Of a stretch of 64,000 nucleotides of DNA, positions 3,481-5,374 are shown piece after piece (the stretch's first letter is position 1; every line of letters begins with the position of its first letter). The stretch is from Oscillatoria sp. FACHB-1406 (GTDB lineage Bacteria; Cyanobacteriota; Cyanobacteriia; Cyanobacteriales; Spirulinaceae), in contig NZ_JACJSM010000001.1 in NCBI RefSeq assembly GCF_014698145.1, positions 216,633 through 280,632 on the forward strand, read 5' to 3'. Position numbers and translations under genes: made by a program. The notes under the pieces were generated by a model, which ran no database searches, was not told the origin of the DNA, and was given only the letters and a program-made list of their open reading frames with translations.

Positions 3481-4497
3481 CTAATTCCCATCGCTAACTC
3501 CCCACTCAAACCCCATTCCCTCAATTTTTTTCAATAGTTCTGGTAGCACGATTTCATTACTCTCTGCTAATAAATCGCTTTCTAAAATTTCACGCGCTCT
3601 CAAAAAAGATTGCGCTCCTATGTGATTTCCGGCATGAAAAACTAGCTTGTCGATTTGATTTAAATGGGCAGCAAGCAATTGAAGCAAAGTCATCAAAACG
3701 CGATTTCCGCCGTAAGCACCGCAGCCCCAGAATCCGGTATGAATAATGACTTGGGGCTTATTAGCCGCCTCGATTTGCGATTCGAGCCTTGCCGCCGCAA
3801 ACCCCGTAAATGCCGTTGAAAGAATGTATTCAATATCTTCTAATAAATATTGTCTGTATCCGCCAAAAGGTGCTTCCATTGCAATCAAATTGGTTCGCGT
3901 TGGCGGATTGAGTTGTGTTGTCGCGCGAGCGATGGCTTCTGGCGATGCTTTCGCAAACTGATTGCCGTACAATCCGTAAGGTCGCCCTGCTTTTTCGTTC
4001 GGTTCGGTAGCAACAGCGCAACGCCGTTCAACTCCTCGGATGAGGATAGGAGTGGGCTGCGCGCTTTCAACGGTAAGGGGTTCGATTGCGGCTGCCAATA
4101 ATGCTTCTCGTAGTGCGCCGAGGGCGGGATGTTCGGCAGCTTGCATCTCATCTTGGGCAAATAACGGCCCACTGTAAGCGCAAAATAGATTGGAGTGGGC
4201 AAAGTTGAGATACCATTCCACTGAGGCATTAGAGGGCGATTCGTAGGTGAAATGGTCTTCGCGAACTTCGAGTTCGGTTTGAATCGGTGTAGGAGCAACG
4301 GTTGGCGGTAAAGGCATCGTTTTCCAACGGGAAAAAACGATTTCACCGCTATGCGTCGCTTCCGGGGGAGAAGCGATGTCAAAAACGATCTTCTTGTTCG
4401 GGTTCTTAACTTTTGGAGGATGAGAATCCATCAAGTTTTGCGCTGCGAAAGTGTGCCGACAGATCGGAGCGTTAGCATCTTGATTCATAGTCTTCAA
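3481..4497 (-). CDS. PARG-like macrodomain protein (poly(ADP-ribose) glycohydrolase family-like), catalytic motif divergent
   Basis: 338 aa. HTGFWGCGAYGGNRVLMTLLQLLAA closely matches the canonical PARG diphosphate-binding loop ([14 protein letters not shown].LAA). The upstream segment NFAHSNLFCAYSGPLFAQDEM aligns with the PARG GGG-X6-8-QEE catalytic signature but reads CAY...QDE. 31 bp downstream of the GT2 gene on the same strand. Confidence 0.5.
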   Translation of the reverse strand: MKTMNQDANAPICRHTFAAQNLMDSHPPKVKNPNKKIVFDIASPPEATHSGEIVFSRWKTMPLPPTVAPTPIQTELEVREDHFTYESPSNASVEWYLNFAHSNLFCAYSGPLFAQDEMQAAEHPALGALREALLAAAIEPLTVESAQPTPILIRGVERRCAVATEPNEKAGRPYGLYGNQFAKASPEAIARATTQLNPPTRTNLIAMEAPFGGYRQYLLEDIEYILSTAFTGFAAARLESQIEAANKPQVIIHTGFWGCGAYGGNRVLMTLLQLLAAHLNQIDKLVFHAGNHIGAQSFLRAREILESDLLAESNEIVLPELLKKIEGMGFEWGVSDGN

Positions 4498-4528
4498 CTT
4501 CCTACTGCTGTACTGATTTTATTATTGC

Positions 4529-5374
4529 TCAGCAATGACGAGCTTCCCCCTCCTTTTCCTGTTGCTGCAATTCCCAAACTTTCAACGTAATCAAGTATTC
4601 ATAGAAAAATTGCAGCGAACACCAATGAAAACCCGCCCTTCCATCCAAGATTCCCCCCAAAATAAAATACATATATAAGAAACGAACCACGGGGCGCAGG
4701 GGCAAGCGCAGGGATAAATCTTTGAGGGCGCGGCGGCGTTCGATTTCCGAGCGTCCTAAAAAGAGTTCCTTCCAACGGACATCCCCTGCTTGTAACTGAA
4801 ACAGTGTTTCTTTGGCTTCGTCGCTGGAGTAACGATTGTGTTTGTCAATCCAGCGACTAAAACCCTTGCCCGAGGTGTAGTGGGGGTAGGTTTCCTTTAA
4901 AAAACCTGTGGGACCATCGCAGACTTCGCGCTCGGTATGCCCGTAATCACTAAACCAAACTTTCCCTTTAAGAAACAGGCGCATTTGGTAGCGAGGATAC
5001 TGGGTGCAGTGACGAATCCAACGATTCATGAACATGACGCGCTCGGCAGCGTAGTAGCCGATAAACTCGTCGGATTGAGTCGCTCGATCGCATTCGGCGA
5101 ATAATTCCGGGGTCATGCGTTCGTCAGCTTCGAGGATGTAAGCCCAGTCGTATTTTGTCGGCACTTCCTCGAGCATCCAAGTCCGCTGGCGGCCGTGACT
5201 TTCAAAGACGTGCTGGATAACGCGAACGCTTTCGTAACTTTTGGCAATTTCAACGGTGCGATCGCGGCTGTAAGAATCTACAACAATAATATCGTCACAT
5301 AAGGAGATAACGGACTCGATACAGCCGGCTATCTCCACTTCTTCGTTATAAGTGAGGATGTAAACGGAGAACAT
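4529..5374 (-). CDS. family 2 glycosyltransferase
   Basis: 281 aa. N-terminus MFSVYILTYNEEVEIAGCIESV...IIVVDSYSRDRT is a typical GT2 (GT-A fold) start with a DxD-like motif. Confidence 0.8.
   Translation of the reverse strand: MFSVYILTYNEEVEIAGCIESVISLCDDIIVVDSYSRDRTVEIAKSYESVRVIQHVFESHGRQRTWMLEEVPTKYDWAYILEADERMTPELFAECDRATQSDEFIGYYAAERVMFMNRWIRHCTQYPRYQMRLFLKGKVWFSDYGHTEREVCDGPTGFLKETYPHYTSGKGFSRWIDKHNRYSSDEAKETLFQLQAGDVRWKELFLGRSEIERRRALKDLSLRLPLRPVVRFLYMYFILGGILDGRAGFHWCSLQFFYEYLITLKVWELQQQEKEGEARHC

Follow-up and report, generated by a model that had tools for sequence, protein, structure and literature searches.

What does a gene for a eukaryote-like poly(ADP-ribose) glycohydrolase (PARG) do in a cyanobacterium, and does it matter that the gene lies directly behind one for a GT2 glycosyltransferase? 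The question arises from a 64,000-nucleotide stretch of the Oscillatoria sp. FACHB-1406 genome (positions 216,633 to 280,632 of contig NZ_JACJSM010000001.1; hereafter the window), in which a PARG-like coding sequence occupies positions 3481 to 4488 of the minus strand. A preliminary description, made from the letters alone, took the catalytic motif of the protein to be degenerate and the protein itself to be a repurposed enzyme acting on ADP-ribose or sugar nucleotides, possibly in concert with the glycosyltransferase. The comparisons presented here lead to a different view: the product is probably an active, stand-alone, cytoplasmic single-domain ADP-ribosyl O-glycohydrolase of the PARG class, and its position beside the glycosyltransferase gene is fortuitous.

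The boundaries of the gene require a short comment. The open reading frame (ORF) 3481-4497(-) begins at an in-frame TTG at 4497 and specifies 338 residues, the length originally reported; starting instead at the ATG at 4488 removes three residues and gives a protein of 335, ending at the stop codon TAG (3481-3483). The true start is almost certainly ATG 4488, since the starts of homologues align there (90 of 120 close homologues begin at the aligned position and 22 of 120 at the next), an AGGA motif lies 11 nucleotides upstream of this ATG, yet stands directly against the TTG, and NCBI lists the same protein, as a hypothetical protein of Oscillatoria sp. FACHB-1406, with 335 residues. We have corrected the length on these grounds; the distance to the GT2 gene, formerly put at 31 bp, becomes 40 nucleotides from the GT2 stop codon to ATG 4488. 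Residue numbers of the PARG-like protein (E117, Y177 and so forth) are counted from the TTG at 4497, not from the ATG.

Membership of the PARG class is evident from both profile and structural comparisons. The protein matches PF05028.20 (PARG_cat_C) over profile positions 105-198 of 207 with 44.2 bits (gathering cut-off 26.3; E 2.2e-11), and this was the sole match in a Pfam scan at E<=1, which detected neither DUF2263 (PF10021), nor Macro (PF01661), nor the PARG N-terminal accessory domain. Searches of the PDB with phmmer (E 8e-5) and with the family profile (E 1.7e-8) returned PARGs only, and both paired TGFWGCGAYGGNRVLMTLLQLLAA with the diphosphate-loop segment of mouse and human PARG. From a family alignment of 26 sequences, AlphaFold2 produced a model that reached a predicted local distance difference test score (pLDDT) of 86.7 and a predicted template modelling score (pTM) of 0.88; its residues 1-99 form four strands and three short helices. 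Foldseek searches with this model placed canonical PARGs (human, mouse, rat, Tetrahymena and Drosophila) in all of the top 42 PDB matches, with a best E of 2.5e-12. Bacterial-type PARGs ranked after them at E ~1e-6, and the closest fold is not that of TcPARG or DrPARG. Because the top matches are all canonical PARGs, the fold as modelled carries the extension of the macro core that canonical PARGs have. The profile search against PF05028 and the structure prediction, both put forward as checks in the preliminary description, were thus significant for PARG. Together with the PDB searches and the hhalign comparison given below they uphold the identification of a PARG-like macrodomain protein, and the ranking of canonical PARGs first, with no match to PF10021, upholds the view that its fold is canonical and not of the DUF2263 type.

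HMMER matched only the C-terminal half of the protein, which left the catalytic loop out of reach; a profile-profile alignment was therefore used. The sequence of the human PARG catalytic domain was verified residue by residue against PDB chains and then aligned with the family alignment by hhalign (probability 96.7%, E 3.5e-10, 207 columns; the match stops at residue 296). Human residue numbers are our own conversion from chain positions, with QEE at 307-309 of 6oak_A. The catalytic-loop region, NFAHSNLFCAYSGPLFAQDEMQAAEHP (residues 98-124; translation of 4126..4206, minus strand), is the counterpart of human DFAN...GGG-X7-QEE...NP. Within it N98-F-A-H101 falls on human D737-F-A-N740 and Y108-S-G-P-L112 on V743-G-G-G-V747; a four-residue deletion follows, after which F113-A-Q-D116-E117 occupies the columns of L752-V-Q-E755-E756, and H123-P124 those of N-P. 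By alignment, E117 stands in the column of the catalytic Glu756 of the human enzyme, and the Glu is kept in 148 of 148 representatives of the family. The number 740 for the human Asn that contacts the 3''OH is our own assignment. An Asn with this contact is conserved in PARGs, and microbial PARGs carry Asp in its place (PMC7050489).

The diphosphate-binding loop and the helix that follows it, HTGFWGCGAYGGNRVLMTLLQLLAA (residues 253-277; translation of 3667..3741, minus strand), contain W257-G-C-G-A-Y262-G-G, which phmmer, hmmsearch and hhalign all align with W-G-C-G-A-F875-G-G of human and mouse PARG. G260-A261-Y262 lies on human G-A-F875 and matches the patch G[A,V][F,Y] in the diphosphate loop of PARGs; both the definition of this loop and the catalytic (general acid/base) role of Glu756 are taken from PMC7050489. 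A further motif, GLYGN (residues 175-179; translation of 3961..3975, minus strand), places Y177 on the third Tyr of human YSEYTGY, Tyr795 by our own numbering, in a part of the alignment that is gapped and of low identity. Tyr795 is the adenine 'tyrosine clasp' of canonical PARGs (PMC7050489), and the alignment is suggestive of Y177 as its equivalent.

Both motif assignments made from the sequence at the outset survive this mapping: the GCGAYGG segment lies on the PARG diphosphate loop in all three alignments, and hhalign, by placing D116-E117 on E755-E756, confirms both the catalytic segment and the change from QEE to QDE. The GGG-X6-8-QEE signature common to canonical and DUF2263 PARGs is absent; the protein reads S-G-P-L-F-A-Q-D-E and the family [GAS][GS]-X3-Q-D-E. 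That the Gly triplet is gone is true as far as the triplet goes, but overstates the change, because two small residues are retained in these columns, S-G here and [GAS][GS] in the family (G in 84 of 148 and 80 of 149 representatives, respectively).

The family at large shows whether the altered loop is decaying or maintained. A word-indexed search with the PARG-like protein gave 1621 matches, and an exhaustive search of 50%-identity representatives gave 813 clusters at E<=1e-10, 369 of them at E<=1e-30. Conservation was determined over an alignment of 150 of these cluster representatives, which have 38-63% identity to the query. The stretch A114-Q115-D116-E117 is invariant (148-149 of the 148-150 aligned representatives); QEE occurs in none of the ~149 aligned members, and QDE is found throughout. 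Twenty-six positions are at least 95% conserved, concentrated on the two ligand loops and GLYGN. They include W95, N98, F99, F105, Q119, E122, H123, P124 and L126 near the catalytic loop and, elsewhere, Y177 (148 of 149), G178 (149 of 149), F181, G255, W257, G258, G260, G263 and Q273. More freedom is seen in the Asn740 column, with Asp in 107 of 148 representatives, His in 21 and Asn in 12. The invariance of AQDE, the retention of the catalytic Glu and the conservation of the flanking residues argue that the active site is a constrained, functional pattern with altered geometry rather than a decayed one. The term 'degenerate' is therefore withdrawn, and the conservation of the altered motif among orthologues, on which the preliminary description had wanted information, is established.

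The family also has hallmarks of its own beyond the ligand loops. One is a 21-residue insertion (residues 137-157) with a conserved P-T-P, which adjoins the conserved R158. Another is the C-terminal tail, WGVSDGN-COOH in this protein (residues 332-338; 3484..3504, minus strand), which finds no aligned counterpart in canonical PARGs. The family pattern W-G-x-[SG]-[DN]-G-[NT] ends exactly at the C-terminus in 142 of 144 representatives, with W332 present in 142, G333 in 136 and G337 in 140 of the 150. Since conservation runs to the terminal residue, a structural or catalytic role of the tail or of its carboxylate is suggested, possibly as a cap over the ribose site.

Comparison with known enzymes sets the family beside two established groups. 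With the canonical PARGs of human, mouse, rat, Drosophila and Tetrahymena (PF05028) the protein shares the fold, the catalytic Glu and the diphosphate loop. It differs from them in size (335 residues, as against ~440-520 for the solved catalytic domains) and in having neither the helical accessory domain (PARG_cat_N) nor the regulatory N-terminus. The canonical loop is four residues longer and carries GGG and QEE where the clade has [GAS][GS] and an invariant QDE; the Asn740 column holds D, H or N in the clade, and both the 21-residue insertion and the W-G-x-[SG]-[DN]-G-[NT] end are the clade's own. The clade is, moreover, bacterial and has no evident poly(ADP-ribose) polymerase (PARP) partner. 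In these last respects it resembles the DUF2263 (PF10021) PARGs of Thermomonospora curvata, Deinococcus radiodurans (DrPARG) and Streptomyces (SCO0909), which are likewise bacterial, compact and single-domain, many without a known partner, and which have an Asp before the catalytic motif, as do most clade members (107 of 148) (PMC7050489). For the PARG-like protein a stand-alone role in reversal or immunity is made plausible by the action of SCO0909 and DRB0099 against RhsP2 (PMC11833690). The protein has no PF10021 match. Macrodomains of the MacroD, TARG1 and DarG types are more distant, as they have neither the consecutive acidic catalytic pair nor the PARG-specific extended sheet and score far below PARGs. 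Without the GGG-X6-8-QEE signature, the helical accessory domain or a DUF2263 match, yet above the PF05028 threshold, the family is best seen as a compact bacterial group that forms a third branch within the PARG-like class, a 'QDE-PARG' clade. Databases already label members automatically as 'PARG catalytic Macro domain-containing protein'; reviews distinguish only canonical PARGs and the microbial DUF2263 type, and a search of open-access papers and bioRxiv preprints found no earlier description or assay of a bacterial PF05028-type clade.

The clade is well populated and widely scattered. It was found in 309 of 185,579 genomes (one per species) from more than 10 phyla, with ~50% identity maintained across phyla; carriers include Cyanobacteriota, Planctomycetota, Chloroflexota, Geobacter, Geomonas, Myxococcota, Acidobacteriota, Synergistaceae, Gemmatimonadota and Thiomargarita. 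Phages, plasmids and IMG/VR are essentially without it: no relative was present among 50,697 INPHARED phage records, and the one match among PLSDB plasmids, 31% identical, is on a Treponema megaplasmid. The single relative among 2.9 million IMG/VR contigs, which may be a phage gene or a misbinned piece of host DNA, is on IMGVR_UViG_3300037466_002816 (L094, 5001-5951; 41% identity). Searches with the PARG-like protein gave only a 16-residue chance match in PHROGs (E 0.19) and no family at E<=1 among the PADLOC defence models. In the window itself there is no compositional sign of recent insertion, GC content being ~0.46-0.49 across 3-6 kb with no anomaly.

If the PARG-like protein worked with the GT2 glycosyltransferase, then the two genes should keep company in other genomes. 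The GT2 gene (4529..5374, minus strand; 281 residues; PF00535, 53.7 bits) lies upstream of the PARG-like gene, and is itself preceded by a gene for HpsJ, a hormogonium polysaccharide biosynthesis membrane protein (5528..6319, minus strand; NCBIfam NF050014, 280.8 bits against a cut-off of 260), which is the 'upstream membrane protein' of the preliminary description. Orthologues of the GT2 protein, 75-80% identical, occur throughout cyanobacteria. HpsJ followed by GT2 on one strand recurs in Lusitaniella, Nostoc punctiforme and Spirulina subsalsa, in each case with no PARG-like gene beside the pair; downstream of GT2 these genomes have a DUF502 or Lum_binding protein. The genes Npun_F0077 (hpsJ) and Npun_F0078 (hpsK) lie side by side, and conservation of hpsK in Leptolyngbya is ~74% (PMC10581220). 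As the GT2 gene is conserved directly downstream of HpsJ, matching the adjacent hpsJ-hpsK pair, it is most likely hpsK.

Seen from the side of the PARG-like gene the linkage is equally lacking. Neither GT2 nor HpsJ adjoins it at any of six individually annotated loci of relatives, where the neighbours differ each time (among them alpha-amylase, MFS, a BrxC/D-like ATPase with TerB_C, GmrSD and Mrr_cat). When three genes on each side were clustered for 68 loci from many phyla, no neighbour recurred, save through vertical synteny within Microcoleus/Tychonema. Tight same-strand neighbours are just as heterogeneous (SUKH-1, BrnT, nadC, HAD, LamB/YcsF and five proteins without a Pfam match), and we rejected the idea of a theme common to them; at most they offer an anecdotal hint of conflict. 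The gene thus stands alone, with a patchy distribution and varying neighbours. On the evidence of the six loci, the 68 clustered neighbourhoods and the GT2 context in three genera, coupling to the glycosyltransferase was rejected: the GT2 protein pairs with HpsJ, and the adjacency of the PARG-like gene is a one-off accident of gene order. In this genome the two genes share a strand, with a 40-nucleotide gap and no predicted terminator, and co-transcription or read-through from GT2 is possible; because the comparative context shows no conserved linkage, we attach no functional weight to it. The proposed sugar-nucleotide hydrolase is left without support.

Domain fusions are more telling than the neighbours. 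An N-terminal DSP-PTPase domain is present in five representatives, with matches to PTP-SAK ('Swiss Army Knife'), Tc-R-P (polymorphic toxin) and PTP-NADK models; other partners are OGFr_N, DUF429, TPR, a CCCH zinc finger and an RNAP alpha-CTD-like domain (the last two once each). No fusion partner in the family is a glycosyltransferase. The fusions suggest ADP-ribose, nucleotide or nucleic-acid chemistry, possibly in settings of conflict or repair.

Some loci of relatives have surroundings of a defence type. One DSP-PTPase-PARG fusion of 521 residues (relative P0130; L093, 4024-13226) overlaps a 75-residue ORF by 4 nucleotides and has NERD and UvrD_C_2 genes upstream and UvrD helicases and a PDDEXK/SNF2 protein downstream; this locus looks like a defence or conflict island. 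At two other loci the tight neighbour is a SUKH-1 immunity-type protein or a BrnT toxin. In three cyanobacterial relatives, the neighbours are TerB_C and a BrxC/BrxD-like ATPase in Aerosakkonema (L005, 3658-7011), GmrSD in Scytonema (L001, 6001-9194) and an Mrr_cat/NA-iREase1 protein in the third (L003, 6001-9131). Defence-type genes are expected to be common in cyanobacterial genomes, and their presence beside these three PARG-like genes may be coincidence.

From the fold, the mapped motifs, their conservation and distribution, the lack of a conserved context and the fusions, we infer a catalytically competent enzyme, its chemistry and its class of substrate. By homology with PARG, the GCGA[YF]GG loop would bind the diphosphate and strain the distal ribose while Y177 clasps the adenosine. 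E117 would protonate the leaving group at C1'' and then activate a water molecule, with D116 helping to position the ribose; the ADP-ribose 1''-O-glycosidic linkage would be cleaved and ADP-ribose released. Given a gene that stands alone, is patchily distributed, has varied neighbours and is fused to phosphatase and nucleic-acid-binding domains, the role would most likely be to strip ADP-ribose adducts, probably from nucleic acids or proteins, in general repair or immunity; a dedicated PARP/PARG cycle is less likely. No hydrolases other than PARG-type macrodomains are known to undo the 2'-OH ADP-ribosylation of RNA by RhsP2; these macrodomains also remove 5'-phosphate-linked ADP-ribose, and bacterial PARGs expressed on their own protect cells from RhsP2 (PMC11833690). 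For this reason nucleic-acid and protein adducts are the leading candidates.

Several observations weigh against an active adduct-removing hydrolase. The departure from GGG-X6-8-QEE, the shorter loop and the replacement of the first Glu by Asp mean that the substrate, and even activity, could differ, and this particular protein carries His in the Asn740 column. The AlphaFold2 model is least confident precisely at the catalytic loop (mean pLDDT 73 and 60 over residues 101-120), and the equivalence of Y177 with Tyr795 comes from a gapped stretch of the hhalign alignment. No cognate ADP-ribosyltransferase (ART) was identified: ten ORFs at 1046-21989 gave only housekeeping functions by Pfam, and neighbourhoods of relatives, examined with 13-kb flanks, held no PARP or ART genes. 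Finally, the context of conflict or immunity is anecdotal, with no PADLOC match and neighbours that are mostly housekeeping or without known function.

Other activities can be accommodated by the same active site. It is unlikely, yet conceivable, that the enzyme hydrolyses small molecules derived from NAD, such as the 1''-2' or 1''-3' glycocyclic ADP-ribose (gcADPR) made by TIR proteins, O-acetyl-ADP-ribose or phosphorylated ADP-ribose, and serves in the turnover of NAD or of signals. PARGs cleave the ribose-ribose O-glycosidic bond of poly(ADP-ribose) (PAR), and gcADPR holds a chemically similar 1''-2' or 1''-3' bond; with its shorter loop, its Asp in place of Glu and its conserved C-terminal tail, the site of the clade could close around a small ligand. 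The DSP-PTPase fusions, with their Swiss Army Knife, polymorphic-toxin and NAD+ kinase models, fit the processing of phosphorylated nucleotides, and nadC (QRPTase) is a tight neighbour at one locus. Against this, no TIR, SIR2 or Thoeris genes lie beside the examined loci, PADLOC gave no match, the zf-CCCH and RNAP alpha-CTD-like fusions suggest nucleic acids, and the substrate is wholly speculative. A true poly(ADP-ribose) glycohydrolase, the partner of the bacterium's own PARP in a reversible cycle of PAR like the one proposed for Deinococcus radiodurans, strikes us as distinctly unlikely. In its favour are the fold of a PARG, the catalytic Glu, a diphosphate loop and a putative Tyr clasp, and some cyanobacteria and other bacteria encode PARP homologues (PMC8120803; PMC4245714). 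A PARP or ART, however, is missing both from the examined neighbourhoods and from within ~20 kb here; reviews count ~72 bacterial PARP-domain sequences as against 309 species genomes with the clade, a rough comparison between datasets of different kind and date; and the invariant departure from GGG-X6-8-QEE suggests another specificity.

The altered loop could also be taken as the mark of an inactivated site, the protein being a non-catalytic macrodomain 'reader' of ADP-ribose or PAR: SG-X3-QDE replaces GGG-X6-8-QEE, and many macrodomains only bind (PMC7050489). We consider this improbable, as the catalytic loop is the most conserved part of the protein, and a reader would need neither an invariant AQDE nor a Glu kept in 148 of 148 representatives; the phosphatase fusions, too, fit an enzymatic cascade. 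Most improbable of all is the original proposal of a repurposed sugar-nucleotide or ADP-sugar enzyme working with GT2 and HpsJ in polysaccharide synthesis. It could draw on the shared strand, the short gap without a predicted terminator and the altered active-site loop, but the adjacency is unique to this genome while the hpsJ-GT2 pair is conserved elsewhere without the PARG-like gene, the clade is widespread in non-cyanobacterial phyla that have no reason to possess an Hps system, and its fusions are to phosphatase and nucleic-acid-binding domains, never to glycosyltransferases.

If active, the clade would widen the set of bacterial enzymes that reverse ADP-ribosylation, in a field that now takes in adducts on RNA and DNA as well as toxin immunity (PMC11833690). 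It would supply a natural E-to-D, shorter-loop variant for the study of substrate selection by PARGs, and it bears on the origin of the eukaryotic enzyme. There is a more elaborate reading, which we hold to be doubtful: the clade, structurally closer than DUF2263 to eukaryotic canonical PARG and maybe the sister or progenitor of the eukaryotic enzyme, would have a non-PAR 1''-O-glycosidic specificity and act as a universal antidote or signal quencher. Under the same doubtful reading its substrates might be 2'-OH-ADP-ribosylated RNA produced by secreted ART toxins, or glycocyclic ADP-ribose immune signals; specificity might be conferred by the shortened loop, the Asp-Glu pair and the C-terminal cap, in a stand-alone enzyme spreading horizontally among more than 300 bacterial species. 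At the level of annotation a tempting error is corrected: the GT2 gene is probably to be read as hpsK, the partner of hpsJ, and the PARG-like gene stands outside the polysaccharide machinery.

HpsJ and GT2 form part of a conserved cyanobacterial synteny block (4529-8324), in which they are divergent from a Glucosamine_iso/6-phosphogluconolactonase-like gene (6698-7432, plus strand) and a gene for a zinc-ribbon and FHA protein with a Pro-rich linker (7560-8324, plus strand), both identified by synteny only; the block recurs in Lusitaniella and Spirulina. Housekeeping genes make up the wider neighbourhood (ABC transporter, GGDEF, class-II aminoacyl-tRNA synthetase, UvrC, ABC-class ATPase and ThiD). 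An ORF of 138 residues, 3019-3435(+), converges on the PARG-like gene; its N-terminus is hydrophobic, and neither Pfam nor NCBIfam gave a match for it at E<=1. A 271-residue ORF, 8652-9467(+), resembles by eye what we take to be a long ribosome hibernation-promoting factor; its N-terminal extension may reflect a mis-set start. Heptanucleotide arrays occur at 2840-2907 (ATAATGG x9.7, directly after the stop codon of the ABC transporter gene) and at 9550-9690 (TAATTCG x12.7, then ATTCATT x5.9), the TAATTCG array yielding a spurious ORF of 'ITNYELR' repeats, 9367-9651(-). The arrays look like the short heptamer repeats, arranged in tandem, that are typical of filamentous cyanobacteria.

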